DNA from: a virus
Taxonomy: Duplodnaviria > Heunggongvirae > Uroviricota > Caudoviricetes
Virus record (IMG/VR): IMGVR_UViG_3300005527_000046
Span: 64,001 to 108,198 of that record
Length of the DNA stretch: 44,198 nucleotides
Direction: 5' to 3' (one strand)
A program made the translations under genes and the position numbers. A model generated the notes under the pieces. It did no database searches and was not told the DNA's origin. It saw nothing but the letters and a program-made list of their open reading frames with translations. This document shows, in pieces, positions 649-44,198 of this stretch; position 1 is the stretch's first letter; each line of letters starts with the position of its first letter.

Positions 649-3600
649 AAATGTATTTTATAGTTACTGGTTTTGTTGAGTCATTAGTTACTAAGTCTAT
701 TCTATACTTAGAGCCTACTGCTGCTACATCATAAGATACTGTATAAATAGCTTCATAAAGACTAATGTTTTCATCTACTAAAGATGATGTTGTTCTAATA
801 CATGGCTTCCAAGTTTCACTAGTAGATTGTTGTGAGTGATAAACTAAGATTGAAGAGTCAACTGTTTTTATATATCCAATCTTTATACTTACAGTAGAAT
901 AGTTATTACCATGTTGTATATACTTAGAGACTAATGTACTTGTATTATTATTTGAATATAAACTAATAGAAGAACCTTTTAATAATAGTAAAGGACTTAT
1001 ATCTAAAGAACTACTATATAAAGTTGCTCTAATTGAAATCTGATTTGAAGCAAAGTCTAACTGAGTATTTCTATTAGTAATAAACTCTTTCCAAATACCA
1101 TCTTCTGTAGCATATTCATATGTTATAGAAGTCAAAGGAGGTATTATATCTCTGGTATTTAATGCAAATGATGTAACTAAATTTACAGTATATGTGCCTA
1201 GATTTACTGTCTTTGTTTGAGATGTAAAGGTGTCTTTATATATGTTATAAGTTAAATCATAGTCTGTAAGTTGTAAGGTATTTATACCATCTTTAGATAT
1301 ATATAAACTACCTTGACTAAACAATTGATTACCATAATAACTTCCAGTATTTAAGTCTGGCTCATTTATCTTAGCAATAGAAAATGAGAAGCCTGCTTGA
1401 GGAGATTTTATAGCAATAATATATTCTTTATCCTTTTCTACTAAAGCGGGATTTAAGAACTTTACATTTACTTTATCACTTACAAATGTTGTTGTTTCAC
1501 CATAGCTAATAATGTTTCTATTATCATCTAATAATAATACTGTTAGTTCAGATGAGACAGATGGTGTAATAGAAGTAAATAAATCAACACTATTTAATAA
1601 ATAATAGTTAGAAGATGTAAAAGTTTGTTCTATATTATATTGAGAAGGTTCTTCTAATAAATAAGGAGGAATAATTGCAGTATTAACATCCTTATTTGTT
1701 GCATCAAATACTACATGATTTAATAAGTTGTTATATATACTAAACTTACTTTTTATATTGTAGTTTAGATTTCTTACTTCTATTGTATGTGTTCCAGTTG
1801 TTATAGTGTTTGGTAATAAAACTCTTACAACTGCTTTACCAGAACTATTAGATTTAAAGCTATTTACTAATGTCCCGGCTAAAGTACCACTAAGTAAAAC
1901 TAAGTTTGTCTGAACAAGAATATTATCTATATATATTTTGTAGTTAGTTGATGTAGGATCTAAGTCAGTTAAGTAAAGATCTATTGATAAACCATTTAAG
2001 ATTGTTACATTATTAGATATATAATTTTCTGATTCTTGATCATAAGAATTAGAGTTAAATGCATTATTTATTTGAAGAGCTTCTTCTAAGTCATTACTAA
2101 GAATTCCAAAGAGGCTTTGGTTGTTTATATCAATTCTATTTAATATTTTACTTGAGGTTCCTATAATTGAGCTTGAAGGATTAATCTTAGCTTTGTTTTC
2201 ATTGAAGAATAAAGAATAAGAGCTTAGTCTTAATATTGGCTTGTATGTTGAAGGTGTTAGAACTTTATATTCTGTAACTCTTTCTTGTTCAATATATTTA
2301 GTAGGAAGATTAGCTGTAGGCAAACTAACATAGTTATCTAATATATATCTATAAGGCTCAGTTGTATTTAAACTGACTTCTCTATAAGAACATCCGTTAG
2401 TTATACTTTGTTTATTAGGACATAATGAGGCTGTGTATGAAGTATTCTCAACATCTTGATTGTTATAAGTCAAGAAGTTATCTGATATTAATTCAGGCTT
2501 ATCTTCAAGGGCAAAGACTGCTTCAGTTAGCCTTCTAGATAAGTTATATAAGTCTTTATTTGTAAATCTATTTAGTCCTAAAGATTGAAATATTGAATTA
2601 CCAATTTGTAATTTAAAAGTGGCTAATGCTAATAAATACTCAGGAATAGAAGGAACTGGTGGATTAATACCTGCACTAGACAATACATAATCTATGTTAC
2701 CATTCTTATCTAAAGTTATTACTCCAGTCTTAGTTTGAAAGTATGAATAATCTACGCTAAAGCTTTGTCCAATTGCAGGAGTTCTATTTATAAACTTAAT
2801 AGAATCATTTTGTAATGTGTAATCTACATTGTTTGTTAATAAAGAAGAATATAAGTATGTAACAAAGTATGTTGTTCCTGGTTCAGGCTCATTTGTAGAT
2901 GGTAAAGACCAATCAATTTGACTTTGATTAGTTAATCTATAATCAACACCTTCAATATAACTTGTCAAGTTTTGACCAACAGATATTATTTTAGATATTG
3001 TTGCTTGTCCTAAATTATCGACTGTTCCTGGAACTGCTCCTCTAATTATTGGTTTACTATTACTTATTAATGTTGCATTTAATCTGTTAACACTTGATAC
3101 AGGTGTAAAGCCTAGTTTATATGTGTTTAAGGATGATGATGAAGTGTTTGTCAAAACTTTAGTTATAGTTAAGCCTTCTCCTGCTCCTATAATTGTATTG
3201 TTAATATCTCTCTTTAATAAAGAAATATTAATGTTTGGCACACTAGAAGAATTTCTAAGGGTTATAAATTTAAAAGTTATTGTGGTGCTATTAGTAAGAA
3301 TTATCTCATAGTTTTGTTTTATAACAGAGAGTAAGTCATTATTGTTTAAAGATAAAGTAGTACAACTTAATGTGCTAGAAGTAATAGTATTGTTAAACTC
3401 ATTAACAATAAACAAGACAATATCAGAGATAGTTGTAATAGTTAAAGGTATACTAATGTCTACTTGTATAACATGTTCAACACCATTGAAAACTACATTG
3501 GCAATTAATAGTCTTACTAAAGGTCTACTACTAATAAAAGCAGGTAATGTTAAGTTACTTAATTGATATGAAACATATGAGGAGGTTCCATCATATGTAA

Positions 3601-16492: not shown

Positions 16493-17638
16493 CTAAAAGG
16501 TCATACATGATTGTGGATCTATAGGATTCCCTCCTATTCTTATTTCAAAGTGAAGGTGAGGTCCTGTAGATCTTCCTGTAGTTCCACAATCTCCAATTTG
16601 CTGTCCTACTGTTACAGTTTGTCCTACACTGCATTTAATTTTATCTAAGTGTGCATATCTAGTTTCTATATTTTCTGGACTTATTATAATTACTAAATTA
16701 CCATAACCTCCATCATTCCAACTAGCATAATCTACTTTACCATTGCTAGCTGCATATACTGGTGTTCCAATAGGTGCAGCTAAATCAGTTCCTGCATGTA
16801 ATCTTCCCCATCTCTGTCCAAACCCAGAGCTAATTGTATATTCTTTCATAGGATTTCTAAGGCTAGAACATTGAGCTGTACCTTGAGCATTAACAGAAAA
16901 ACCAACACTGTTATTAGTTGCATTAGACGCTCTAACAGTTCCACCATTAGTATTAGGTCCTGTTATTGGTTGAACTGGCCCAGTTATTTTACAGCCGGGA
17001 TTACTTATTTGAAAGTTTGCTCTATATAAGTCTTCTTCTTTTATTGGTGGACAATTAATATCAGAGAAGTTGGCAGATGAATATGGTGATAAACCTGTTA
17101 AGGCAAAGGCAGCTCCAGTATTTGCTATTGGTGAATTATCATTAACAATAGGTCCTTTTGGTAGTGTTGTACCTTTTAAACTATTAACTAAATTGCAGAA
17201 GCCTTGTGCATCATATTTACTTCCTTGTCCTCCATATCTAAAGTTAGAAGATGAGTCTGGTAATGATGCCCATTCATAAGAGTTATTATCTAATGTTGCT
17301 ATACAATTACCAGCTATAACATCATTTAATGTGCCTCTATAATCAAGTAAGTATATTGCAGCTATATCTTGATCTCTAGGTTCTCTAATATCTAAAGGTC
17401 CTATTGCTGGTAGTATAGTACCATTCCAAGTATTTGGCATAAATTGATATCTACCAAAAGCAGCAGTAACCCCTCCACTAAATACTGTATCTGGATGAGC
17501 ACTACTTGAAGGTATATGAACAACACCTCCTTGAGCAGTGTAATATGTAGGAGCTTCAACAGAACTAATAGCATTTAAATAGGCTACTACATTTGCATTA
17601 CTTAAAAGCTGTCTATAATATTCCTTGTCTTTTGCCAT
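16493..17638 (-). CDS. Lambda-type lysozyme/transglycosylase fused to an M23 metallopeptidase
   Basis: N-half: SSVEA (candidate catalytic Glu), AFGRYQFMPNTW, QDIAAIYLL, EWASLP. C-half: HAGTDLAAPIGTPVYA, YAHL, STGPHLHFEIR. Confidence 0.92.
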   Translation of the reverse strand: MAKDKEYYRQLLSNANVVAYLNAISSVEAPTYYTAQGGVVHIPSSSAHPDTVFSGGVTAAFGRYQFMPNTWNGTILPAIGPLDIREPRDQDIAAIYLLDYRGTLNDVIAGNCIATLDNNSYEWASLPDSSSNFRYGGQGSKYDAQGFCNLVNSLKGTTLPKGPIVNDNSPIANTGAAFALTGLSPYSSANFSDINCPPIKEEDLYRANFQISNPGCKITGPVQPITGPNTNGGTVRASNATNNSVGFSVNAQGTAQCSSLRNPMKEYTISSGFGQRWGRLHAGTDLAAPIGTPVYAASNGKVDYASWNDGGYGNLVIIISPENIETRYAHLDKIKCSVGQTVTVGQQIGDCGTTGRSTGPHLHFEIRIGGNPIDPQSCMTF

Positions 17639-21981: not shown

Positions 21982-22776
21982 TTAGAATATTTGAGCTTTA
22001 AGAGGACCGCTTGGAATGGCCGATGGATTAGCAGTACTAAGAGTATTACTACCATTAAATGAAGGCCCAACAGCAGCATTATCTCTAAAGTTTTGAAGTG
22101 TCTCAGGAATGAATCTAATTCCCTCAGCAACACCCTCCCAACGTTGTGCTATAACTCTTCTACCAGGCATGATACCAACTGATAGAGAGTCTATTTTGCA
22201 TCTTTGTAGTTCATATCTACCTTGTGCAACTGGCACTGGTTTGTCATAAGAAGCTTGTGAACCGTTAACTCCTTTTAACTTATTAGATACATAAGACTGG
22301 TTGTTACCACCAACAATTTGATTGAAGGAAGTACCACCTAATCTATAGATATCATAGTTGGAGTTACCAGGAGTTTTACCAGCTTGGCTTGTTCCACTGT
22401 TGGCAATACCAGCATAGTTTTTATTTAATTCATATGCTGATACGTCCCAAGTAAGTTGAAATCTAGGACCTCTAGTTACAAGTTGTTCTCTACTCATGTT
22501 TTGAACGCCAAAGGTTCTTTGTAAGAAGTTCATGTCAACCAGACCTTGTTCAATAACAAATGCTATTTGAACTTCACCATTTAGATATACTGGAAACCTA
22601 GTACCCAAAGGTAAATAGGTTTCTGTACTATCTCTGATTGTTAAGGTAATAGACTGAAAGTCGCCAAACAATGCAATTTGACCTGAAGCTGCATCTTGCA
22701 TCCAAGCTGCAACGTCAAAACCTTGCATAGGATCTAATCCTACATTATTAATCGGAGCTTGATAAATATCTAACAT
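21982..22776 (-). CDS. Tail tube protein
   Basis: Directly after the sheath. GDFQSITLTIRDSTETYLPLG...GEVQIAFVIEQGLVD and YELQRCKIDS patterns. Has a Gly/Asn/Ser-rich insertion. Confidence 0.75.
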   Translation of the reverse strand: MLDIYQAPINNVGLDPMQGFDVAAWMQDAASGQIALFGDFQSITLTIRDSTETYLPLGTRFPVYLNGEVQIAFVIEQGLVDMNFLQRTFGVQNMSREQLVTRGPRFQLTWDVSAYELNKNYAGIANSGTSQAGKTPGNSNYDIYRLGGTSFNQIVGGNNQSYVSNKLKGVNGSQASYDKPVPVAQGRYELQRCKIDSLSVGIMPGRRVIAQRWEGVAEGIRFIPETLQNFRDNAAVGPSFNGSNTLSTANPSAIPSGPLKAQIF

Positions 22777-22804: not shown

Positions 22805-25567
22805 TTAACTTAGTGAGACATTACCAGATACATCTCTTGTTAAAGTGACTACAATTCTTTCAATAGGAGCTGTTGGTCTATAACTTAAAGAGATGTTTAA
22901 TATACCACTGTAATAGGCTTCTGCTGGATTATTGCTTTCATCAATTTGAGGTTGATCATAAGAAACAATAAAGTTACTTCTGGTTTGTAAATTCATATAA
23001 GCAGAAATAGCAGCAGCTATCTTAGTTCTAATAGTTCTAGTATTAGGTTCTCCTTTATAGCTTTGAAGATTGAAGAAGATATCTTTTCTAATCTTGTCAT
23101 TAACTCTTACAATTGAGATTTGGTTCTTACCAATTGTGTCTGTCATTGTCCTACCTTGTACTACAAAGTAACCAGATAAAGCAGGGTCAATTGCAATCAA
23201 GTCAACCTTAGCATCAATGAATAGTTGTTTAGCACTAATAGATCTATAACCATCAGTATCTGCTTCTATGATTCCTTGAATAGATCCTGCACTTGTTCTA
23301 GCAGCAGGGCTAATATTCTCAGGAATAGCGGCTAACTTACCAGCATAAAAAGCTGCAAGTGGTACTGTAAATCTACCAATGTTAGAACCACCACCATAGG
23401 TTGCCCAACCACCAATATAAACCCCTCTTTCAGTGTTAATACCTGCTGTTTCTGTTCTTGCAAGACCGGGAGTTAAGTTTCTAGTAGATGTAAGAATAGC
23501 TAACTTTCTACCTTCTAATTCACCACTGTTGTTAGCAACAGATAGTTGAGCTTGTCTTACTGCTGGCATAGCACCTAGTTCACTAGCAACAACAATAAAG
23601 TTTACTCTTTCTTCTGCTAAAGACTTAATAGCTGCAATATAATCTTCTTCTGTTGGTAGGGGACCATCATAACCTTTCTTTAAGAATAGACCAGATAGTT
23701 TAGCATTACCTACATATAAAGGATTTCTAATGTCAGTTACACTTGTAATGAATGGATTAGCAGGAGCTAGCCTTTGGGGTGTTCTAGTTACAATTTGAGC
23801 AGGGAATAAATTGCTACCAGTTGTAACTGGAATGTAATCAGCTCTAACATATGAGGAGCCAATTGAGTTAATAGTTCCATCACTTGCAACGTCTCTTAAT
23901 AGATCTACATTGAATGACTCAACTTGTTTATCATTAGTGTTAGTATTTGCATCTTCAATAGTTACAGAGAACTTACTTGAACCAGTACTATTTACACTAA
24001 TAGATAAGTTATTTCCCCATTGTCCAGGACTAAGAGCAGTAAATCTAACTAAAGGATAGCCATCAGCACTGTATAGAGTTAAGAAGGCGTTTCTTGCACT
24101 ATTAGATGTTGAAGAGAAGCCAGTCTTATTTAATGGGCCGTAATTACTAAAGTTTATACCATTCAAGTTATTGAATGTTACAGTTCCACTTACAATGTTT
24201 GCAGAGACTGGATCACTTAATGTAAGAACATTACCTACTTTGTTAATAACTGTAGTTCCTTGAATGATACTTGTACCAACAACAATTGAATCAATTGCAA
24301 TGTTTGTAGCATCTGCAACAGTTAAAGTTACACCGCCAGAGGTTGCTGAACCAGTTGTAACTACTTGTCCATCAGGCTCATTTAAGTCAATCCATAAGCT
24401 ATAACCACTAGAAATAGTTACTCTATCTGGATCTTCTAGGTCAAAGAATTCTAGAGGTTGACCAACAATATCTTCTGATAAATAGATTCTTGCACCAGCT
24501 TCTGAAGGTAATCTATCAACAATACCAATAGGTGAAACTCCACCAGTTATGTCTTGAATGTTGTTGATAACATCTGAAGCGGTTGCACCTTCAGCAATAG
24601 GAATATAATACTCAGCAGAGTTAGCTCTTACTGTGAATGAATCTCCAGGATATAATTCAATTGGAATGCCAGTTGTACTAAATTTTAATGAGATACCTTC
24701 TGCAATTAATTTTACAATTCCAGCATCTGTAGTTAAATCTAAAGCGGTTCCTATAACTCCACCAGTTATTGTGGCTGAAAGTGTGTCTACATATGTAGGT
24801 ACATCAGCACTGTCATTACCCCAGTTTACCGTAGGAATGTTGTATAAGAATGGATACTGATCAATAGGTAAAGCTACCCACTTTAGTGTTGCTTTGTTGG
24901 TAAGAGTAAATCCTCCATATCCAGCTACCGCAGTAACTAAAGGAGCAGATAATGTTACAACTCCAGTTAGAGGATTAACACCTGTTACAGTAGTTGTTGT
25001 TGGTAAAGTCAAAACACCAGAATCTGTACTAGCAATTTTAGACCCGATTACAATCTTTTCAGCGTTGGCAATTGATGTTGTAATTGTAGATGCAGATGTT
25101 GCTTGATTATAAGTAGCATTTAAGGTGATAGGACCTTGTGTTACTTTAAACAAGTATCTTTTATCTACATTGCCAGTGTAACTACCTTCAGCAGCAATAA
25201 ATGTTTCAATAAAGCTTGTTGTTGTACTTACTGGTTGACCTACAAACTTTAAGTTGACAGTTAGAGTGTTAGCTTTTGTAGCAACTCCACCAACATATAA
25301 ATCAACTTTAGGAGACTGTGATCTTCCAATTACTCTTTTTATACCAAATTCTCTAGCTCCTTGATCATAAGCTGCTTGGAAAGATAGGTTAGCAATACCT
25401 GTATCATATCCATATATTCTGGCAAAATCTCTAAATTCAGATAACAGAACAGTGTTTATTGGTCCTCTTGTGAATTCACCTACAATAGCGACTCTGTTAG
25501 AAGCATCAGTATTAATTGGTGCGCCTAAGCTAGGAGTCTCGTTAAAAATAACTTCAGGAACTCTCAT
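22805..25567 (-). CDS. Tail sheath protein with inserted beta-rich domains
   Basis: VAIVGEFTRGP, F.RIYG, RVIG, FTALSPGQWGNNLSI, PLAAFYAGKLA, QISIVRV, PTAPIERIVVTL; 920 aa. Confidence 0.92.
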   Translation of the reverse strand: MRVPEVIFNETPSLGAPINTDASNRVAIVGEFTRGPINTVLLSEFRDFARIYGYDTGIANLSFQAAYDQGAREFGIKRVIGRSQSPKVDLYVGGVATKANTLTVNLKFVGQPVSTTTSFIETFIAAEGSYTGNVDKRYLFKVTQGPITLNATYNQATSASTITTSIANAEKIVIGSKIASTDSGVLTLPTTTTVTGVNPLTGVVTLSAPLVTAVAGYGGFTLTNKATLKWVALPIDQYPFLYNIPTVNWGNDSADVPTYVDTLSATITGGVIGTALDLTTDAGIVKLIAEGISLKFSTTGIPIELYPGDSFTVRANSAEYYIPIAEGATASDVINNIQDITGGVSPIGIVDRLPSEAGARIYLSEDIVGQPLEFFDLEDPDRVTISSGYSLWIDLNEPDGQVVTTGSATSGGVTLTVADATNIAIDSIVVGTSIIQGTTVINKVGNVLTLSDPVSANIVSGTVTFNNLNGINFSNYGPLNKTGFSSTSNSARNAFLTLYSADGYPLVRFTALSPGQWGNNLSISVNSTGSSKFSVTIEDANTNTNDKQVESFNVDLLRDVASDGTINSIGSSYVRADYIPVTTGSNLFPAQIVTRTPQRLAPANPFITSVTDIRNPLYVGNAKLSGLFLKKGYDGPLPTEEDYIAAIKSLAEERVNFIVVASELGAMPAVRQAQLSVANNSGELEGRKLAILTSTRNLTPGLARTETAGINTERGVYIGGWATYGGGSNIGRFTVPLAAFYAGKLAAIPENISPAARTSAGSIQGIIEADTDGYRSISAKQLFIDAKVDLIAIDPALSGYFVVQGRTMTDTIGKNQISIVRVNDKIRKDIFFNLQSYKGEPNTRTIRTKIAAAISAYMNLQTRSNFIVSYDQPQIDESNNPAEAYYSGILNISLSYRPTAPIERIVVTLTRDVSGNVSLS

Positions 25568-31179: not shown

Positions 31180-32048
31180 ACTTGATATTTTTATATCCGC
31201 TCCATCCTTTATAAAAAGTACCTTTATTTATAAGAGAATGCATACAAGATATAGCTAATTTATTTTCTCTGCAAAAATTATTTAGATTTACACAGATATG
31301 CTCTTTTCCTTTTGGATCAGTTAAAAAGTAAGTATAAAATGTTTTAGTATTAAGATTTTTATTTATTATGAATTGGAGTCTTTTTCACCTTTTTCATTTA
31401 GAGGAATTATTGTTCCTGATATTCCTTTATAGTGATATCCAAATATTAAATTTCTTATTATAGATGGTTTTGATAAACTTAGTTGATTACAAAAATCTTG
31501 TAAGTCTAAATCATCAAATACATAAACATCACCATTTAGAGTGTTTATTTTATATTCAAATAAACTTACATATTGTTTATCCTTTCTTTTTTTTGTTCAA
31601 TTACTTCTGAGTTTTGTATATATTTAGATAAAAAAGGAATTCTAGTTTTTCTGTTTTCTGCTCTTTTACTTATTTTTAATTTAGATTCTTCTGAGTGATG
31701 TTTCCCCTGCATTGGATTTGTTTCTGCTAAAGGATTTATGTTATAACCCTTTTCTGGATTAGAAGAATCATAATAATCCATCCAATATTGTTCTCTTTTT
31801 GTTAAGAGTTCTTTATTAACAGTTCCATCACTTAATCTAGGAATTTCTTCTAGTAATTCAAATTTAAAATTAATTTCACCATATTTATTCCAAGAATGTT
31901 GTAGTCTTTGATTGTCATGTTGGTTTCTTCTGAGATTTAATTTATGATCTCCTTTTCTACCATTAAAATAAGATGTTTGGCCAATATATCTTTTGCTATT
32001 AATAATTTTGGTTATTGAATAAATTCCTGAGACTTTAGTTCTAGACAT
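31178..32048 (-). pseudogene. Free-standing GIY-YIG homing endonuclease (NUMOD3 plus two C-terminal DNA-binding repeats) split by two -1 frameshifts
   Basis: GIYSI...YIGQT...R...REQYW...GYN, then HSEESKLKIS. Frame 0 stops at 31566. One extra A at the A8 run (31587-31594) and one at the A5 run (31381-31385) restore a 290-aa ORF ending ...DPKGKEHICVNLNNFCRENKL...KGWSGYKNIK*. Confidence 0.8.
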
Positions 32049-32160: not shown

Positions 32161-33480
32161 TTATAAACTGCCATACTGCAAGTCGCCAAGGACCCCAATT
32201 CTGGTGTTAATATCTTGAATTGTACCAATGGTCATGTGAGCTACTCTATGAGGATATAGCAAGTAAGGAAGACCAGCATTACCCATTTGAATGTACATAC
32301 CAGGAGCAGCAGGGATTGGGGTATCTCTTTGTTCTCTCATCCACAATCCAGGATTACCACCTGATTCTTCTGATACACAATATTGAGTTCTACCTGGAGC
32401 TTCATAGTTACCATCAGGACCAGCTTCAGATACAAATACAACTTTGTTTCTAGGCCATAGAAACTTTCTTACACCGTCTACTGGATCACGATACCAAGTC
32501 TCAACTGTTCTAATTGGAATGCCAGCTAAGGAAATAATACCATCTGGGCCAACACCAATAGAACCAACTTGATTAGCACTTAGTACATCAGATTCAATTT
32601 GATAGCCACCACCAGTATTACTAATTAATACATTTTTGTCACCTGTTTTAGCGCCTAGTCTAGGAATAAGTCCACCAGTTTGAAGCTTAATCTCATTGTT
32701 TTCTGAGATGATCATCTTCAAGTCAGGGTGAATATACATTGCTGTAATCTTAGTCTTATTGGTTGTTTTGAACCAATAGGCAAACTTTTGAATACAGGAG
32801 ACAATGGCTGCGTCTGGTTCAGTCCAAGGCATACCAGAAGTTGTGGCTTGAGGTGTATTATAATCAACTAAACCTCTGAATAGATTGGCTTCATTTCTAC
32901 CTCTATAACCTTGAGTGTTGTTATAACTCCAGAAGTTATGAGCAGGAATTTGTGCTGATACATTAATTGGTTGGCCGCTTCTAGGATCTGTATAGTTAAT
33001 ACCACCAAGAAGAGTTAAACCTCTGTACACATCCCAAGTCAAGTTGTGAGCTTCAACAAGCTTTTCAATTTGCTTGGCTACAAATGCTTCTGGATTTTCA
33101 AAGTCATTAACAGTGCCATCTTTAATTCTAATATTAGCGTCACCCCAAGAAATGTAGTGAGAGCCTCTTAGATACAAAGGTTGTACATAACGTCTTTGAG
33201 TTGTGTATTGACTGATTCCTAATAGTTGATCTGGCTCACCAAATTTAACAGGTGTAAATAAGGTACCAGTTGTTTCAAACTTTTGTTCTATAGCAACAAT
33301 TGGTTGCTTGATAGTTTGATCTGGAAACAATTCCTTTAAAGGAGTTGAACCGACTAGAGGAAGGAAAGACTTTGCTAGTTCTAGATAACTAGGTACGCCT
33401 GGCTTCTCACTAGTACTTACTGTTTCCCAAGGAGATGCATATGCATTCATATTAAAAGCTGGAACTTGTTGTAATGCCAT
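32161..33480 (-). CDS. Major capsid protein (HK97 fold, lambda E-like)
   Basis: 439 aa after the protease/scaffold. LKELFP, YVQPLYLR, IEKLVEAHNLTWDVYRGLTLLGG, ITAMYIHP, PYLLYP patterns. Confidence 0.8.
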   Translation of the reverse strand: MALQQVPAFNMNAYASPWETVSTSEKPGVPSYLELAKSFLPLVGSTPLKELFPDQTIKQPIVAIEQKFETTGTLFTPVKFGEPDQLLGISQYTTQRRYVQPLYLRGSHYISWGDANIRIKDGTVNDFENPEAFVAKQIEKLVEAHNLTWDVYRGLTLLGGINYTDPRSGQPINVSAQIPAHNFWSYNNTQGYRGRNEANLFRGLVDYNTPQATTSGMPWTEPDAAIVSCIQKFAYWFKTTNKTKITAMYIHPDLKMIISENNEIKLQTGGLIPRLGAKTGDKNVLISNTGGGYQIESDVLSANQVGSIGVGPDGIISLAGIPIRTVETWYRDPVDGVRKFLWPRNKVVFVSEAGPDGNYEAPGRTQYCVSEESGGNPGLWMREQRDTPIPAAPGMYIQMGNAGLPYLLYPHRVAHMTIGTIQDINTRIGVLGDLQYGSL

Positions 33481-34923: not shown

Positions 34924-35427
34924 ATGGAAATGGATAATCTCCTTGATATTAAATTTACTAGAAGTCATGCTTTATCTGAAGAAGTAAGAGCAGAAGTTAC
35001 ATCTAGATTATATGGCTTGATTGCTAGTTATATTGATGCTAGTGGTATTGTACTAGAAGCGCATTGGAATAGTGAGGGTAATAATTTTATTACTGTTCAT
35101 ACTTTATTTGGGGATATTGTTGGATTATTAAATGGATTTGTTGATCCATTAGGAGAAAGAATTAGATCTTTTGGAGGCACTGCTAAAGCTAACTTAAGGT
35201 ATGCTTTGGAAAATACTTTATTAGTTGAAACTCAAGCAATTTCTAATAATATTGATAGTAATATTCAAGCAGTAGTAACTATACTTAAAAGATTAAGTGA
35301 GTTGTTATATATGTTTATTAATTCTTTAGATAGTTTAGATAAGACTACATCTAACATATTACAAGATCAATGTAATAGTGTAGATAAATACATCTATCTT
35401 TTACAAAGTCATTTGTTTAATAGCTAA
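34924..35427 (+). CDS. dps: Dps-family ferritin-like protein
   Basis: AHWNSEGNNFITVHTLF...VDPLGERIRSFGG keeps the H, H, D, E ferroxidase pattern. C-terminal DKTTSNIL...DKYIYLL; 167 aa. Confidence 0.88.
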   Translation: MEMDNLLDIKFTRSHALSEEVRAEVTSRLYGLIASYIDASGIVLEAHWNSEGNNFITVHTLFGDIVGLLNGFVDPLGERIRSFGGTAKANLRYALENTLLVETQAISNNIDSNIQAVVTILKRLSELLYMFINSLDSLDKTTSNILQDQCNSVDKYIYLLQSHLFNS

Positions 35428-37656: not shown

Positions 37657-39084
37657 TTATTCTTCCTCGTCTGGTATTGCTAATAGGTTTCTAAAATGTC
37701 TTCTATCTTTTTCATTGATAATAGGATTTATAATACCAGCCTCTGTTAATGTTTTAGCACTGTCTGCTATTACTTTGTAATCTACATATCTCATAGGCTT
37801 GATTGTAAAATAACCTCCATCTTGTGCACTAGGCACTAACATTGTACTAAAGTTGTACTGAATAAGAGGTTTTACTAATTGTTCAATTATTGCTTGAGAT
37901 ACCTTAATAGCTATTTGAGTTATAGCCATATCAAATATTTCTAACTGCCTTTCTGCAGATCCACCAGAGCCTAAACCTCTTCCTTCATCTCTAATAATTA
38001 AGTTAGGAATACCTAAAGCATTTAACATGTTTTGGTCACATAAATTAATAGCATTTACAAAAGAATCACCAAAGTTATTTCCAGTTGTAAGTGCCGCTAC
38101 TTTAGGTTCTGGTGCGTCTTTATTTCCTTGTCTTTCAAGTATAAGAACAGAACCACTACTTAATCCTTGAACTTCTTCTTGTAGAGCTTCTCTAAACATT
38201 TTCTTTCTAATTGTTCCATCTTGTTCTTCAACATCTTCTGTTGTTTGAGTTGCTGGAACAATAAAATACATTAGAGGTGTTCCATATCTATCAAGAGCAA
38301 TGGAATACATATCTCTAAAGGCTTCTTTGTATAATGAAAAGTCTACTGCTGCATAAATAGCTGGTGTACCATGTGGATTGTTACCTTCACTTTTATATGT
38401 AACCATAATTAGCTTGTCTTGAGCTAATCTTATGTGTGATCCAGTACAATCTCTACTTACTTTATATGCTTTACTATCTTCTGTTAATATAGGTCTAGGA
38501 ACCCAAACACCTGTATTAAACTGACTATTTAGTACCTTTTCACCATGAGTTAAAGAGCCAAAATTATTGAGTCTAAGTATTATCTGAGACGTATGATAAT
38601 TAATAAGATCTTGTATCCATAGCTGTCTTACCTCTCCTTGATATCTCTTTTCCCATACAATTTCAGATACTGATTTACCAGACCATAACATTGAATATGT
38701 AATGTTCTCAATCCAAGTTCTGACTCTATTGTTTAGGTTTGCCCTAACAAATGCTTTTATGTCTGGGTTTGGATGATTGTAAGAACCTATCTTTGCCAAC
38801 ACAGAAAGAACCATCTTATCTAAACCATCAGATATAATAGGCTCTCTTTTTCTTACATAATCCCATACTGCTAGTTGATAAGGATGTGGTCCTGTGTTGA
38901 CATATAAAGAATCACCATTACTAACAAAAGATGTGGCTCTTCCTAATTGTTTATAAGTATTAGGTCTTAGTTTGTTATCTCCTAATACTAGTAATGGAGG
39001 ATTAGTATTAAACTTGTTTATATTAATCTCTCCATTACTAACTTGTTGTTCCTTTTTAGGTGTCTCTGTTTTTGCTTTTATCAT
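37657..39084 (-). CDS. Portal protein (DUF935/Mu gp29-like)
   Basis: SMLWSGKSVSEIVW, EGNNPHGTPAI, LDRYGTPLM, GSGGSAERQ, QLVKPLIQYNF; 475 aa. Confidence 0.88.
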   Translation of the reverse strand: MIKAKTETPKKEQQVSNGEININKFNTNPPLLVLGDNKLRPNTYKQLGRATSFVSNGDSLYVNTGPHPYQLAVWDYVRKREPIISDGLDKMVLSVLAKIGSYNHPNPDIKAFVRANLNNRVRTWIENITYSMLWSGKSVSEIVWEKRYQGEVRQLWIQDLINYHTSQIILRLNNFGSLTHGEKVLNSQFNTGVWVPRPILTEDSKAYKVSRDCTGSHIRLAQDKLIMVTYKSEGNNPHGTPAIYAAVDFSLYKEAFRDMYSIALDRYGTPLMYFIVPATQTTEDVEEQDGTIRKKMFREALQEEVQGLSSGSVLILERQGNKDAPEPKVAALTTGNNFGDSFVNAINLCDQNMLNALGIPNLIIRDEGRGLGSGGSAERQLEIFDMAITQIAIKVSQAIIEQLVKPLIQYNFSTMLVPSAQDGGYFTIKPMRYVDYKVIADSAKTLTEAGIINPIINEKDRRHFRNLLAIPDEEE

Positions 39085-39085
39085 T

Positions 39086-39564
39086 TTATGTCATTTTTAA
39101 ACTAGGCATGGATATATCACTGAAGCTAGATCTATGAGGTTTAGAAGCTTCAAATTGTTTCTTTAAATCTTCCTTCTCCTGTTGATTTGCTTTATGTCTT
39201 TCAATATTTATTTCATTAACTGATATTTCAAAAGCTCTTCTCTCTACCTCATCAAGATCTAGCCAATCGTGTCCATATGCTATATTAACAGTTTGACATA
39301 TTTGTATGTAATTATCTAAGTTAAAAGCCTTTCTAAAGTTTTCAGCTAGCTTTTCAAAGAAGTTTTCTCTGAGATATACAAACTCTTCTGATAATTGTAT
39401 GTCTCTATAATACTTCTCAGGATAGTTTAAATCCTGAGAAGTCATGTTCTGTTTTAATACAGTTTTTGTTTTAAAGACATAAGCTAGTTGTTGGTTAAAG
39501 CTTATTAGGCGGTGATCGTTGTAGCAGGGGTGATAGTAGTAGGTTGTTCCACTGAGGTTTGTGA
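39086..39564 (-). CDS. Frameshift (T) extension of the tail assembly chaperone; the predicted GT fusion is about 276 aa
   Basis: The -1 frame is open from the slippery site (VTNLSGTTYYYHPCYNDHRLISFNQQLAYVFKTKTVLKQN) into the 119-aa ORF 39086-39445. Confidence 0.75.
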
Positions 39565-39915
39565 CTTTCCCTCCATCAAAGCTTTAGCATTGGCTTGTGC
39601 TCTTTGCTTTGTTACATCATCTGTAAAGGCAATAGCTACAAATACTTCTAGATAGAAAGAAAGATCTCTCATGGCCCAATCTGAAATTTGATCAATTACA
39701 TCATATTCATAATCTGCCATCATTGGTTTGCCATTTACACTTACTAACATCATAGCTGCTAATAGTTCTTCTAGCATAAAGCCAGCTTCATTTTGTTGCT
39801 GTCTGAATCTTTTCATTGCTACTTGTCTATCTCTAAATGTAGGAATGGCAAAAACAATCTTTTTACCAGATGGTAGAGTAATAGGAAATGAGGTAGCCGT
39901 ATCTTTTTGTGACAT
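39505..39915 (-). CDS. Tail assembly chaperone (G-like)
   Basis: ITLPSGKKIVFAIPTFRD...LLAAMMLVSVNG..., with an in-frame G GGA AAG near the 3' end. Confidence 0.75.
   Translation of the reverse strand: MSQKDTATSFPITLPSGKKIVFAIPTFRDRQVAMKRFRQQQNEAGFMLEELLAAMMLVSVNGKPMMADYEYDVIDQISDWAMRDLSFYLEVFVAIAFTDDVTKQRAQANAKALMEGKSQTSVEQPTTITPATTITA
39565..39571 (-). other. Programmed -1 ribosomal frameshift heptamer GGGAAAG
   Basis: Reads GAG GGA AAG in frame 0 (X XXY YYZ phase). Identical to the lambda gpG/gpGT slippery sequence. The -1 frame stays open for 159 codons to 39086. Confidence 0.85.
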
Positions 39916-40057
39916 ATGTGTTTGTTGTTTTATTGTTTGGTCTGGGAATTTTTAGTCTAATATAATTAACTGCTTACTTAGTTATTTTATTAACTGTAAT
40001 TATATTACTATATACATTACTATTAATCAAATATATATTATAAAGTGGGCACAATTA

Positions 40058-43000
40058 ATGTCTAGTTATTTTTCAAACACAGAATATCACTTAGAATCAA
40101 GAAGAGAAGTTGTTAGTGGATTACATAATAATTTACAACAAGGTAGTAGAAGTGCTTTAGGTACCTCTGTTAGCTTTAGTTTGTATAATTCAGAAGGCTT
40201 CACTCAAGAACTTAATTATTCTGGTTCTAGTTGGGATGCTGCATTAAATATGTCTAATAACATATCTAATGGTATTTTTGCTGTAGATACTAGTTCAGGT
40301 AAAAGTAGTGCTTTTGATAATAGATTAGTTTTAGGCCTCTCTCAAACTGTAAGCAGTAGAACTTTTAGTGAGTTTGATAGTAATATTGCAAATAGTCTTA
40401 AAGATAGTAGAAATAGCCTTAAGTTTCTAATGGGTGAGGCTTATAGAATAGATCCTAGTGAAACAAAGGCTTATGCTAGTCAATTAGTATTTGAAAACTT
40501 ATTTGGTAGTATTCTGTCTCAAAGAGGTATGTATGTTGGTAGTAATAATGCTAGTAAGGTTGATAATTACTATTTGAATCAATCTATTGACTATGCTAGA
40601 GCATTTGATAAATTAAGAATGACAGATAAACAATCTATTGAGTCTAGAGGACAAGAGACATTAGATAGATTGGTTTATAGTGATTTGTTTGGTACGGGTT
40701 TAGTGCCTATTGCTTCTGGAACTGATCCTACAGAACAAGATAGAAGCTTCTATGATAATGTTTTTAATAATATTAATAGAAGAACTGGATCTACTATTAG
40801 TGATTTAGCTTTTATTAGAAGTAAGTCAATGACTAATGAGTTAGTTGGAGGTAATGTTAGCAGAACTACTAGATCTGTTAGAGGTGTTGATGTTGCTATT
40901 AATAATAGTTATCAGCAAAAGGCAGAAGGAATTATTCATGATATTAAGTATCAAACTAGACCAGGTATTTTACCTTTTGTAGCTATGTTTGAAGCAGCTA
41001 ATAGTAGTATTACTATTGATACCTTCCAATATCAAAATAAAGCTATTAGTGATGTTGTTGTTAGTAAAATATATAGAGAAATTATTACTAATAAGAATTA
41101 TGGCTTTAAAGTTAATATGACTGTTGGTACTCCTCTTCCTAGTGATGATGGTACTGGGGCAGCTATCTTTGGTCCTAATATCTTAGAAGTAGTTAAGATG
41201 CAAAAACTACAAGAAGTTATTACTAAACAACTAAAAGCAGAAGGTATTGAACAGAATATTATTGACCAAGTTAACAGTAATTTTACAATTCAATTAGCTG
41301 GTCCTGCCCATCACAGAAAGGTTTATATCACAGATCAAGCTGCTGTGTTAGGTAGTATTAACTTAACTAGTCCTGTAGGAGATTCTGTCTTTAAAGCTGG
41401 TTCTAACTTTGAAATGCTAGGCATGTTTCACTCTGATAAGACTTTGGTTAATGTTAGAAATAATAAGGCTGTTCCTTATAGCCCTGAATATATTGAGCAG
41501 ACTAAGATAGAACAACAAGATGTTTATTCAACTGTTAGTAAGAAAACTAGATCTGCTTTACTATATGAACAAGTTGTGGCTGCTCAAAAAGAACAAGCTG
41601 TAACTAGAAGTAGTCAGTCTAATATTAAATATGCAACAGATGTTATGTATGCTTTAAAAGCTACAGTTGACTATTTGCATAAAGAAACTGGAAGAGAATC
41701 AAAGGCTAAAGATAATAATTTGGAAAACTTGCAAGGCAAACTTACAAGTGATTTAAGCATGACTATGGTCTTAGACCAAGCTTATTTATTACATGTTAAT
41801 CATCTAGATATGAATGGTCAAGGTAGAGGATATAGAGATGACACTAATGCAATAAATAAGAATAATCAAGAAATGGGGGAAATGGGCAGATTTAATGAGT
41901 CTGATTATAATTCTCCTTCTTTTAAATCAAGACAAGATATTAGATATGACATGTATAAGAGTATACAAAGAAAGAACTTTACTCTTGTTGCTATGGGTAT
42001 TACTAATATTGTTGTTGATCCTAAAAACTACAGAAGTCAAGTAATTGAGCCTACTTGGGACTTTATTAATTTAAGGCTTAAGAATGCTTTTGTTAGTGAT
42101 TATGGTGGATCTATTAGAGGTTTTGTAGAGGGTGTTACTAGAGGTGATTCTAGTTTTGGTGCAAAGGTTGCTGCTATTAATACTGCTTTAAATATAAATG
42201 ATACAAGTAGTAATACTGCTTATCAAATATTAGCTATTGCTAGTGGTAATATGTCTGGTGCTAATGTTCCTAGACAACATGCTAAAGCTTTTGAAGCTAA
42301 GAGAAATTTAGGCGGAGGTAGATATCAAGGTATATCTAGTTACATGGGTTCTGCTAACTTATCTATGTCTAATATGGGTGTTGGCATTAATAGTAGATAT
42401 CTAGAAGTAGGAGGTAATGATCCATTTGTAACGGATGAAATGGGTGTTGTACTTATCAATAGAAATGTCTTTGAAAAGGAAAGAGACTTTACATTAGATG
42501 ATGATTATACTAGAAACATACAGCAGCTAAGTATTGGTTTTAATAATGAGTTTGCTCTAAATTATGAGGAAGAACTAGCAGAAATGAAGGATGCTAGTAA
42601 GGCTGTTGTTATGGCTTACAACCAATTGAACTATGGTAATAGAATTGAAAGTGGAATACTACAATCTATTGAAGGTTTGCCATATTGGGCTAAACAAGCT
42701 AACACTGGAGACTTATTAAAATTAGAAGCTAGCCTTAAAAATATGAGTAAAGGCTTAGGAGAGGCTATGTCTGTTAATAGAAAATATGACAGATTTGGTA
42801 CTCCTAATATGCTTGAAATAAGTATTAATCCTAGTGGTTTAGTTGGTCTTAATACAGCTTCTAGTAGGCTTACATATACTGTTACTATGTTACAAGGAGA
42901 TGGTAATCAACCTGGTCCTGTATTCTTCCAAAAAGAAGGTAAGTTGATCTATAACAGTAACTTTACTAATACTAGTGGTAAGGATATTGTTTGGAATTAT

Positions 43001-44198
43001 AGTAATAATAAAGGTGGTAGATTAGCTGATGGACAGTCTGCAGAGATGTCTAGTATTGATAATACTACTAGTATCTTTGCAACCATGATTGCTGAGATGG
43101 CCTATAAACAAACTATTAGTAATCCTAGAGCTAAGTTGGTTGGTATAGATGAAGCAGGTAGTACTAGTTTAATGCTGGATTATACTGCTTCTGTTTTAGG
43201 TATTAATAGATATTTATTAGAGGATAGTACTACTGGCAGATATGCAGATGGTAATACTTTCTCTGACTATTTGTTTGCTAGCGGAAAACATATTAACTTA
43301 TCTTTTGAGTTAAGTAGTAGACTAGCAACTAAAGGAGTTGGCTATTTAGATAGTACTAGATCATTTGCAAGAATAGATGTTAATAGTAGTGATAGATCAG
43401 GTTTAAGAGAACATATACAAGGCTTGAGAGATGCTACTAGTGGCAGTGAAGTATATTCTAGAATAGATGCTATTAGTAAGCTAATGGGTCAACAAGGCTT
43501 TGAAGACTTAGCATTAGATGTACTTAGAGTTAATAGTAGATATAATGCTGAAGGTGATATTAATGCTCAAATGAGAGAGTTATCAAGTACTATATTTGAT
43601 CCTTATTTACAAGCCCATCAAGCGGTCACTTATGGTGCTGGTGTTGCTGCTAGTAAACTTATTAGTTATGGTATAGATGCTACTGATGCTCAAGCTTTAT
43701 TTATGTTAGATATGGGAGAGTCTGTTAAAGGCGGTCTATTAGATACACTAAATTATGCTAGAACATTTGCAAGAGATGTAAGTGTTTATAGTACCTTTGG
43801 ATTTGATGGGGCAGATGAAAGATTCTATATTGGTGGTGTTGCTGAAGGTGTTTCTACTCAGAATAAGAAGGGATATCAACTAAATGCCTTTGGTGTTAGA
43901 AATAAGTTTCCAATTGATAGAAATAGCTTAGATATATTAGAAGGAACTGGTATTGGTAATCTTGTTAGCAAAGAAAGACTATTAAAAAGATTTACTTCTG
44001 ATGAGGCAGATCAGATACTTAGTAACTTAAATATTAAAGGGAAAGGAATACTCTTTAACTTAGATCCTAATAAGCCAACACAAATTAACCAAAGAATTAA
44101 AAATGCTTTGGGTAGTAGATTAATGTATGAAATTAACTCTGAAGCGGCTGCTATATTAAAAGGTGGTGGAACTTTAAAGGCCTTTAAGTCTACTAAAA
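40058..44198 (+). CDS. Giant protein (>=1380 aa, runs off the right edge) with two PLD-superfamily HxK motifs; candidate tape-measure/ejection protein
   Basis: Hand-translated with no stop from ATG 40058 to the window end. H419-R-K-V-Y-I-T-D-QAAVL-GSINLT...SNFE (H codon at 41312) and H741-A-K-AFEAK...YMGSANLS...TDEMG (H codon at 42278). Absent from the ORF track because it has no stop in the window. Confidence 0.8.
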   Translation, partial: MSSYFSNTEYHLESRREVVSGLHNNLQQGSRSALGTSVSFSLYNSEGFTQELNYSGSSWDAALNMSNNISNGIFAVDTSSGKSSAFDNRLVLGLSQTVSSRTFSEFDSNIANSLKDSRNSLKFLMGEAYRIDPSETKAYASQLVFENLFGSILSQRGMYVGSNNASKVDNYYLNQSIDYARAFDKLRMTDKQSIESRGQETLDRLVYSDLFGTGLVPIASGTDPTEQDRSFYDNVFNNINRRTGSTISDLAFIRSKSMTNELVGGNVSRTTRSVRGVDVAINNSYQQKAEGIIHDIKYQTRPGILPFVAMFEAANSSITIDTFQYQNKAISDVVVSKIYREIITNKNYGFKVNMTVGTPLPSDDGTGAAIFGPNILEVVKMQKLQEVITKQLKAEGIEQNIIDQVNSNFTIQLAGPAHHRKVYITDQAAVLGSINLTSPVGDSVFKAGSNFEMLGMFHSDKTLVNVRNNKAVPYSPEYIEQTKIEQQDVYSTVSKKTRSALLYEQVVAAQKEQAVTRSSQSNIKYATDVMYALKATVDYLHKETGRESKAKDNNLENLQGKLTSDLSMTMVLDQAYLLHVNHLDMNGQGRGYRDDTNAINKNNQEMGEMGRFNESDYNSPSFKSRQDIRYDMYKSIQRKNFTLVAMGITNIVVDPKNYRSQVIEPTWDFINLRLKNAFVSDYGGSIRGFVEGVTRGDSSFGAKVAAINTALNINDTSSNTAYQILAIASGNMSGANVPRQHAKAFEAKRNLGGGRYQGISSYMGSANLSMSNMGVGINSRYLEVGGNDPFVTDEMGVVLINRNVFEKERDFTLDDDYTRNIQQLSIGFNNEFALNYEEELAEMKDASKAVVMAYNQLNYGNRIESGILQSIEGLPYWAKQANTGDLLKLEASLKNMSKGLGEAMSVNRKYDRFGTPNMLEISINPSGLVGLNTASSRLTYTVTMLQGDGNQPGPVFFQKEGKLIYNSNFTNTSGKDIVWNYSNNKGGRLADGQSAEMSSIDNTTSIFATMIAEMAYKQTISNPRAKLVGIDEAGSTSLMLDYTASVLGINRYLLEDSTTGRYADGNTFSDYLFASGKHINLSFELSSRLATKGVGYLDSTRSFARIDVNSSDRSGLREHIQGLRDATSGSEVYSRIDAISKLMGQQGFEDLALDVLRVNSRYNAEGDINAQMRELSSTIFDPYLQAHQAVTYGAGVAASKLISYGIDATDAQALFMLDMGESVKGGLLDTLNYARTFARDVSVYSTFGFDGADERFYIGGVAEGVSTQNKKGYQLNAFGVRNKFPIDRNSLDILEGTGIGNLVSKERLLKRFTSDEADQILSNLNIKGKGILFNLDPNKPTQINQRIKNALGSRLMYEINSEAAAILKGGGTLKAFKSTK

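Follow-up and report, generated by a model that had tools for sequence, protein, structure and literature searches.

A giant gene at the end of the contig

The window analysed here (44,198 nucleotides, positions 64,001 to 108,198 of the IMG/VR virus record IMGVR_UViG_3300005527_000046) represents the terminal 44 kb of a viral contig 108,198 bp in length, and it ends inside the gene of a giant protein whose N-terminal third carries a predicted domain of the phospholipase D (PLD) superfamily. The open reading frame (ORF) begins with an ATG and runs on the + strand from 40058 to 44197 (1,380 codons) without a stop up to the end of both window and contig, as stated in an earlier reading of the window's letters alone (hereafter the first-pass annotation), which had reported an open frame of at least 1,380 codons. 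Because the contig ends inside the frame, the gene is incomplete in the window. The extension that the first-pass annotation had called for was obtained by a word-indexed search for longer proteins, which returned the whole gene, encoding 3,928 residues (P0002, L003:10001-21787). P0002 is carried by a 187,841-bp Joint Genome Institute (JGI) metagenome contig (the twin contig) whose DNA is 99.9% identical to the window, and it differs from the window protein at one residue across the common 1,380. The frame is thus the N-terminal third of a 3,928-residue protein from a Ma-LMM01-like contractile-tailed phage. Its first 285 residues, 44% of which are Gly, Ala, Ser, Thr or Asn, gave no Pfam or PHROG match; the other features lying in the window are given in Table 1.

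Table 1. Position of the giant gene, of the features it encodes and of its flanking region (coordinates of the window)
Feature	Coordinates	Strand	Basis or remark
Giant Cys-free protein gene, 5' third (aa 1-1380)	40058..44198	+	frame cut by contig end
N-terminal region (aa 1-285), rich in small and polar residues	40058..40912	+	without recognised domain
Predicted PLD lobe 1 (aa ~300-460)	40955..41437	+	PLDc_2 alignment over aa 309-438; AlphaFold strands and helices
HKD motif 1, H419-R-K421-x4-D426-x5-G432-S-I-N435	41312..41362	+	H, K, G, S and N invariant
E452 (GSNFE, aa 448-452), conserved Glu 3' of motif 1	41411..41413	+	invariant in 13 relatives; 89% in 54
Predicted helical insert between the lobes (aa ~461-645)	41438..41992	+	AlphaFold secondary structure, confidence partly low
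Predicted PLD lobe 2 (aa ~646-825)	41993..42532	+	superpositions spanning model residues 15-551
HKD motif 2, H741-A-K743...G764-S-A-N767, longer spacer, no Asp (K748)	42278..42358	+	H, K, S and N invariant
E794 (TDEMG, aa 792-796), conserved Glu 3' of motif 2	42437..42439	+	invariant in 13 relatives
Basic block K1339-x2-Q-x2-Q-R1346-x-K1348-N1349-x2-G-x-R1354	44072..44119	+	first block of the conserved middle region
Divergent neighbours: 136-aa ORF (39505-39915), 119-aa ORF (39086-39445), portal (37657-39084)	37657..39915	-	PHROG
AT-rich divergent intergenic region between portal-side operon and giant gene	39916..40057	.	sigma-70-like hexamers on both strands, consensus matches only

Two conserved half-sites in one chain

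The 1,380 residues encoded in the window contain two HxK sites only, H419 and H741, and three GSxN sequences, two of which sit 13 and 23 residues past these sites. Motif 1, HRKVYITDQAAVLGSIN, begins at residue 419 with GSIN at 432-435, and motif 2, HAKAF...(x17)...YMGSAN, begins at residue 741 with GSAN at 764-767. The chain therefore bears the two-HKD signature of the superfamily, that is, two H-x-K...G-[ST]-x-N motifs with conserved His, Lys and Asn. Both motifs had been pointed out in the first-pass annotation (the first followed by NFE, the second by DEMG), together with the lack of the canonical Asp in the second and the gap of about 320 residues, with inserted segments, that separates them; the sequence agrees on every count, and the structural model described below places a helical insert in the gap. 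More specifically, motif 1 keeps D426, whereas K748 occupies the place of the canonical Asp (+7) in motif 2. The Asp is not universal in the PLD superfamily, Tdp1 having HKN. The insert between the lobes is mostly helical and comprises about 185 residues, and its length varies among relatives.

In an alignment of 13 relatives (22-60% identity), H419, K421, G432, S433, N435, E452, H741, K743, S765, N767 and E794 are all invariant, as compared with a mean column identity of 41%, and the PLD catalytic-type residues are at least 85% conserved among 54 giant relatives. The loss of the His and Lys residues in homologues, which the first-pass annotation had singled out as telling against its proposal, is thus not seen among these 13 sequences. 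In a distant subgroup of the family, two HxK...G[ST]xN matches are present in members P0068, P0070, P0071, P0075 and P0076, and the match is absent or doubtful in P0065, P0066, P0067 and P0073.

A template-free AlphaFold model of residues 285-835 (predicted local distance difference test, pLDDT, 75; predicted template-modelling score, pTM, 0.80) displays a bilobed architecture. All 50 of the 50 Foldseek matches listed are PLD-superfamily or PLD-fold entries (one being a polyphosphate kinase 1), with a best E value of 7e-5, and the top ones are Streptomyces PLD (probability 1.00), cardiolipin synthases and PGS1. Superposition with VIA-align gave Z scores of 14.3 for vaccinia F13 (255 residues, 3.8 Å), 13.4 for PLD1, 13.3 for PssA and 12.4 for PLD3/PLD4; these whole-domain fits involve about 255-280 residues at 3.6-4.0 Å and extend over model residues ~15-551, hence over both lobes together. 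Lobe 1 alone fits the nucleases Nuc (1byr, Z 10.7) and NucT (6ehi, Z 10.9), as well as Zucchini, in the range 10-11. Since both lobes fit in one rigid superposition, the two half-sites face, in the model, one cleft as in monomeric PLD enzymes, and since they superpose on monomeric two-HKD enzymes, one chain could build one active site. The fold check advocated in the first-pass annotation thus yields two lobes that superpose together (Z 12-14), and its proposal that the protein could be active as a monomer is supported by half-sites that are complete, conserved and located on a single chain. Altogether, the model portrays residues ~300-825 as an intact, very divergent two-lobed phosphodiesterase of the PLD superfamily.

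Three sets of searches weigh against this assignment: (i) the Pfam models PLDc_2 (PF13091; E 4.7e-4, 20.4 bits for a gathering cut-off of 27) and PLDc (PF00614; E 7.7e-3, 16.7 bits for a cut-off of 21.9) both score below threshold; (ii) a sequence search of solved structures with residues 280-830 gave no PLD or polymerase match; (iii) neither did profile searches of solved structures with two profiles (A1 and A2). As the scores lie under the curated cut-offs, the domain reads, at the sequence level, as a divergent member of the superfamily outside the PLDc and PLDc_2 families as Pfam defines them. One could go further and regard the HKD pairs as relics and the domain as structural and non-catalytic, a reading that would accommodate the subthreshold Pfam scores, the missing Asp and long spacer of motif 2, and the fact that the closest structural match, F13, is itself motif-degenerate. 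However, the His, Lys, Asn and trailing Glu of both halves are invariant at 22-60% identity while their surroundings have diverged. Because the catalytic residues are held constant amid diverged sequence, we favour a working active site and leave the relic reading a slim chance only.

Catalysis in PLD enzymes relies on both His: attack on the phosphodiester by that of one lobe yields a covalent phospho-histidine, and that of the other lobe donates a proton to the leaving group. The PLD head of the giant protein would act by this standard mechanism, with the Lys/Asn pairs holding the phosphate and with E452 and E794 probably positioning the two His, a partner role known from Nuc.

Its substrate is less readily deduced from structure, which does not favour nucleic acid over lipid: the best whole-domain matches, F13, PLD1 and PssA, are about level with the nucleases PLD3/PLD4. 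The head could indeed be a phospholipase or a lipid transferase that remodels the host cytoplasmic membrane for DNA entry or exit, given that the best whole-domain superpositions (F13, PLD1 and PssA) are with lipid or membrane PLD proteins, that the best Foldseek matches (Streptomyces PLD, cardiolipin synthases and PGS1) go the same way, and that the protein has a hydrophobic segment near its C-terminus. Yet the Z gap between these proteins and the nucleases PLD3/PLD4 is within noise, the single lobes match the nucleases Nuc, NucT and Zucchini at Z ~10-11, and no lipid-binding element was identified, so that such a membrane-remodelling role seems unlikely. By analogy with the second giant Cys-free protein of the same genome (see below), nucleic acid would most likely be the substrate, and we regard a nuclease as moderately probable and a lipase as rather doubtful.

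A family of giant proteins nearly devoid of cysteine

Besides P0002, the word-indexed search returned 18 relatives of 3,379-4,848 residues, and 61 members only, nearly all of them 3,000-5,400 residues long, were recovered with a profile from 1.84 billion representatives. Cultured relatives are limited to the Microcystis phages Ma-LMM01, MaMV-DC, MaMV-DH01 and others, and the Microcoleus phage My-WqHQDG. The family coincides with PHROG 31006, which has no assigned function, and our literature search found no paper naming the Ma-LMM01 member, gp080, or the family. The first-pass annotation had called the protein unannotated and undescribed; this needs qualifying, since gp080, a 'hypothetical protein' in the phage record, has been given by UniProt (A0A7J4) the automatic name 'PLD phosphodiesterase domain-containing protein'.

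No Cys occurs among the 3,928 residues of the whole protein, whereas Cys makes up 1.0% of the genome's remaining ORFs (P ~5e-18), and the 77 proteins of the family contain a single one in 274,314 residues. Among the 32 neighbours of the structural block, seven ORFs are Cys-free, including the 920-residue sheath (22805-25567, - strand), whereas most ORFs of the block have several Cys. Four diverse members (P0002, at residues 3806-3824, P0016, P0018 and P0075) display a Gly-rich hydrophobic segment in their last 130-320 residues, which may be a membrane-insertion element. Note that the same genome encodes a second giant protein (G000:C1:46040-56368, - strand; 3,428 residues) that also has no Cys; no homology was found between the two giants, and the second lacks the DxDGD sequence dealt with in the next section.

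An invariant acidic loop in the distal part

Outside the PLD head, the family has conserved a middle region with seven invariant positions (R1346, K1348, N1349, D1506, R1668, K1679 and K1735), the first block of which is the only one inside the window. All 52 relatives compared keep R1346, K1348 and N1349, which are 96-98% conserved in the set of 54 giants; the block may resemble the stretch R-F-R-x-N-L-x-G-K-R of the β' subunit of RNA polymerase. The most conserved feature of the family is an acidic loop, G-D-[FYWLV]-D-G-D, which occurs once in each member covering the region and which lies, in the protein studied here, at residues 2795-2800 (G-D-F-D-G-D; L003:18383-18400), outside the window. 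Across 53 sequences, no variation is seen at D2796, D2798, G2799 and D2800. The loop is preceded by R-S-x-P-x-G, reminiscent of N-R-A-P-T-L-H in β' (sequence from E. coli rpoC), and followed by two invariant blocks (3076-3085 and 3162-3171). At the motif level, it has the form of the DbDGD metal loop of two-barrel (double-psi β-barrel, DPBB) RNA polymerases, and a hidden Markov model (HMM) of the family, run against E. coli rpoC and rpoB, matched β' only at ADFDGDQMA (single-target E 0.014). A model of residues 2690-3290 (pLDDT 78) consists of a small sheet and long helices, in which a short helix leads into the loop and a strand then a helix come next; this helix-loop-strand order is also that around NADFDGD of E. 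coli β'. Two other identities of the loop, Toprim (DxD) and EF-hand (DxDGDG), were set aside by reasoning, given the order of these elements and the lack of an invariant upstream Glu.

Beyond the motif, the searches lent no support to a polymerase in this part of the protein. With the model of residues 2690-3290, Foldseek found nothing below E 0.2 in the PDB, only the Ma-LMM01 homologue in BFVD and nothing in the AlphaFold DB clusters, and VIA-align against 48,161 chains found helical hairpins only (Z ~9, residues 119-185), although a half-barrel may be too small to be detected within a helical model. The Pfam RdRP model touches 2 of the 53 members (best E 0.0049) and turned up no candidate when run on the record of Ma-LMM01 and on that of the Microcoleus phage; with a YonO alignment of 74 sequences, hhalign returned a probability below 1%; a PHROG search of the family hit its own phrog_31006 only and no polymerase PHROG. 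Neither Rpb1 domain 2 nor the T7-type RNA polymerase model matched the window's contig, but the latter was also blank in all control genomes, so that its negative carries no information. Co-folding of residues 1320-1760 with residues 2700-3200, meant to see whether the conserved middle block packs against the DbDGD block, scored 0.24 for a mark of 0.32, and ESM-Atlas feature searches with residues 2650-3300 and 1300-2060 gave weak tape-measure-like matches or none. Moreover, papers on Ma-LMM01-like phages state that no RNA polymerase is present, and the promoters of all gene classes of Ma-LMM01 are reported to look sigma-70-like (PMC5780444). The negative searches carry little weight because, as Chaban et al. 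report, polymerase families of the two-barrel kind share little beyond the motif. To summarize, the rest of the protein may comprise a nucleotidyl transferase with a two-barrel RNA polymerase-like core in addition to the membrane-insertion element; judging from sequence motifs, an RNA polymerase in the distal part is possible but, on balance, unlikely.

Genomic surroundings

The giant gene diverges from an operon headed by the 136- and 119-residue ORFs and containing the portal gene (PHROG portal, E 5e-26; Portal_Mu on the twin contig); the 136-residue ORF matches phrog_32670. The major head protein gene (32161-33480) lies a few kb beyond the portal. The arrangement in which two small ORFs and the portal diverge from the giant gene is also that of Ma-LMM01, of the P0016 contig and of the very distant P0075 contig, each again with the major head protein gene a few kb further on. 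On the other side, the twin contig (L003:24004-24297, - strand) and the P0016 contig have a PAAR-motif gene at a distance of about 2 kb downstream, so that in these two relatives the giant gene is flanked by the portal/head block and by a spike-tip gene. More than 14 kb separate the giant gene from the sheath and the adjoining 264-residue ORF (21982-22776, putative tube), both on the other strand, and the baseplate protein, a lysozyme/M23 protein and an 830-residue ORF in the usual tape-measure slot are 15-23 kb from it.

This gene order bears on the proposal of the first-pass annotation that the protein is a tail tape measure, or a tail-lumen protein, endowed with a PLD enzyme and served by adjacent G/GT chaperones. 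Giant size would suit such a protein, P23-45 gp96 offers the precedent of a tape measure and an RNA polymerase joined in one protein (PMC10770324), and a language-model feature search with residues 2650-3300 gave a weak tape-measure-like score of 0.85, a range reached by a third of shuffled proteins. The neighbours, however, cannot be such chaperones of the giant gene: both small ORFs are encoded by the other strand, as part of the portal operon, and the tail block, with its 830-residue candidate, is far away. Length is no better a fit, since at ~0.15 nm per residue 3,500-3,900 residues would give a tail of more than 500 nm, as compared with 260 nm for the tail of the relative MaMV-DH01 (PMC9927357); comparing ORF and tail length was another check put forward in the first-pass annotation. 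The tape-measure reading is thus contradicted by gene order, and we consider it the least likely of all those discussed here.

Four other genes of this region deserve mention. A ferritin/Dps-like gene (34924-35427, + strand; Pfam Ferritin on the twin contig, PHROG 'DNA binding protein') lies between the portal and major head protein genes, in the same place as on the P0016 contig. The major head protein gene is immediately followed by an ORF resembling GIY-YIG/NUMOD3 homing endonucleases (31566-32048, - strand). In the baseplate block, the lysozyme/M23 protein (16493-17638, - strand; 381 residues) matches lysozyme-type PHROGs in its N-terminal part and M23 metallopeptidase-type PHROGs in its C-terminal part, and is probably a tail-borne cell-wall-degrading enzyme. 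On the P0075 contig, a Sigma70_r2 gene (L008:19212-20006, - strand) is located downstream of the giant gene, with one 78-residue ORF in between; we return to it below.

A proposed packaged and ejected enzyme

Which role would best account for a protein of this kind? We propose that it is a multi-enzyme protein packaged in the head and ejected into the host, with a PLD phosphodiesterase as its head, a reading to which we assign a probability of about one half. According to this scheme, the protein would be made alongside the products of the head genes and packed into the capsid, then threaded, along with the DNA, down the tail and into the host; having no Cys would keep it free of disulfides through unfolding and passage, and the PLD head would cut phosphodiester bonds at entry. 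A function as an ejection protein, which the first-pass annotation had offered as the alternative to a tape measure, is plausible in view of the portal-side synteny, the zero Cys content and the C-terminal hydrophobic segment. Packaging in the virion, taken by itself, has in our opinion somewhat better than even odds.

RNA-seq data are available for the Ma-LMM01 homologue (PMC5780444 supplement). Transcription of gp080, absent at 0 and 1 h, is seen at 3 and 6 h, and the gene shares its subclass with the portal gene and gp081. Since it is silent at 0 and 1 h, gp080 is not an early gene; its timing fits a protein destined for next-generation particles and is also compatible with an intracellular role in mid-infection.

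Four observations do not sit well with the overall proposal: (i) the expression class of gp080 is 'middle' and not 'late' (PMC5780444 supplement); (ii) on the P0018 contig, the giant gene is found among nucleotide-metabolism genes (NrdD, radical-SAM, helicase) and not on the portal side; (iii) the Sigma70_r2 gene of the P0075 contig lies close by; (iv) no virion proteome for the Ma-LMM01-like phage group was found in the literature. The first, second and fourth of these would be in keeping with a protein that is never packaged and acts inside the infected cell in mid-infection, in replication, transcription or nucleic-acid processing, by means of a PLD nuclease head. Set against such a role are the portal-side synteny kept in very distant members, the family-wide absence of Cys, which is hard to explain in a purely cytoplasmic enzyme, the C-terminal hydrophobic segment, and the expression of the homologue with the portal rather than with the early genes; we rate it as doubtful, well below even. 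The packaged and ejected enzyme hence remains our preferred reading. In its most elaborate form, which we put forward tentatively and deem rather improbable, Ma-LMM01-like myoviruses would pack into the head and inject a single Cys-free giant of ~3,500-5,400 residues, in which a metal-independent PLD nuclease head is combined with a tail that inserts into the membrane and with the core of a two-barrel RNA polymerase, cryptic and possibly split. Such a protein would be a new class of injected 'take-over' enzyme, which the phage studied here would deliver together with a second, unrelated giant.

Several consequences would follow. The phages in which the family is conserved include those controlling toxic blooms of Microcystis as well as many uncultured relatives; it supplies the largest gene of each genome, without a published function. 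If the protein is injected, its PLD head would be, to our knowledge, an unreported kind of phage-delivered phosphodiesterase; should the distal part prove to be a polymerase, the current view of a full dependence of these phages on host transcription (PMC9927357, PMC5780444) would need revising. The near-total exclusion of Cys is a striking constraint that may mark proteins threading through the tail. The intact PLD active site predicted around H419 and H741 and the invariant DbDGD loop both provide a testable handle.

Comparison with known systems

The closest known proteins are Ma-LMM01 gp080 (YP_851094, UniProt A0A7J4, 3,562 residues) and its homologues from MaMV-DC/DH01 and My-WqHQDG, with which the homology extends over the whole length at 24-27% identity in matched blocks. 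Like the window protein, gp080 has both HKD motifs and the DFDGD loop and is nearly free of Cys (one only), and its gene diverges from two small ORFs and the portal. They differ in that the window protein is 366 residues longer, and in the base composition of the genomes, the window genome having a G+C content of ~30%, lower than that of the cyanobacteria that are the hosts of the cultured isolates.

As regards the PLD head, the relevant two-HKD structures are vaccinia F13 (9fhk), human PLD1 (6ohr), PssA (3hsi/8yr5), the 5' exonucleases PLD3 and PLD4 (8v06/8v08) and Streptomyces PLD (1v0w/2ze4). With these enzymes the predicted head shares the organization in one chain and two lobes, each giving an H, a K and an N (Z 10-14 over ~255-290 residues). 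Unlike them, it carries a helical insert of ~185 residues and is embedded in a 3,928-residue protein, in its motif 2 the Asp is missing and GSxN comes after a 20-residue spacer, and identity is as low as 9-15%. The single-HKD nucleases Nuc (1byr), NucT (6ehi) and Zucchini/PLD6 (4ggk) fit lobe 1 over ~127 residues at 2.6-2.9 Å and have, as does the window protein, a conserved Glu past the motif; they dimerise to make the site, whereas the window protein has both halves in one chain.

The second giant of the same genome resembles the window protein in being giant and Cys-free and differs from it in its position, in the absence of DxDGD and in showing no detectable homology. Finally, the giant polymerases that phages deliver into their hosts, namely the virion RNA polymerase (vRNAP) of coliphage N4 (~3,500 residues), gp96 of Thermus phage P23-45 (a two-barrel RNA polymerase fused to the tape measure; PMC10770324) and gp66 of the crAss-like phage phi14:2, have in common with the protein described here their size class and a gene located in or beside the structural block. 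None of the three has a PLD head. Each of these phage-carried giants revealed a new way of starting infection, and for both P23-45 gp96 and phi14:2 gp66 a DxDxD-type loop was the sole sequence clue before their structures were solved.

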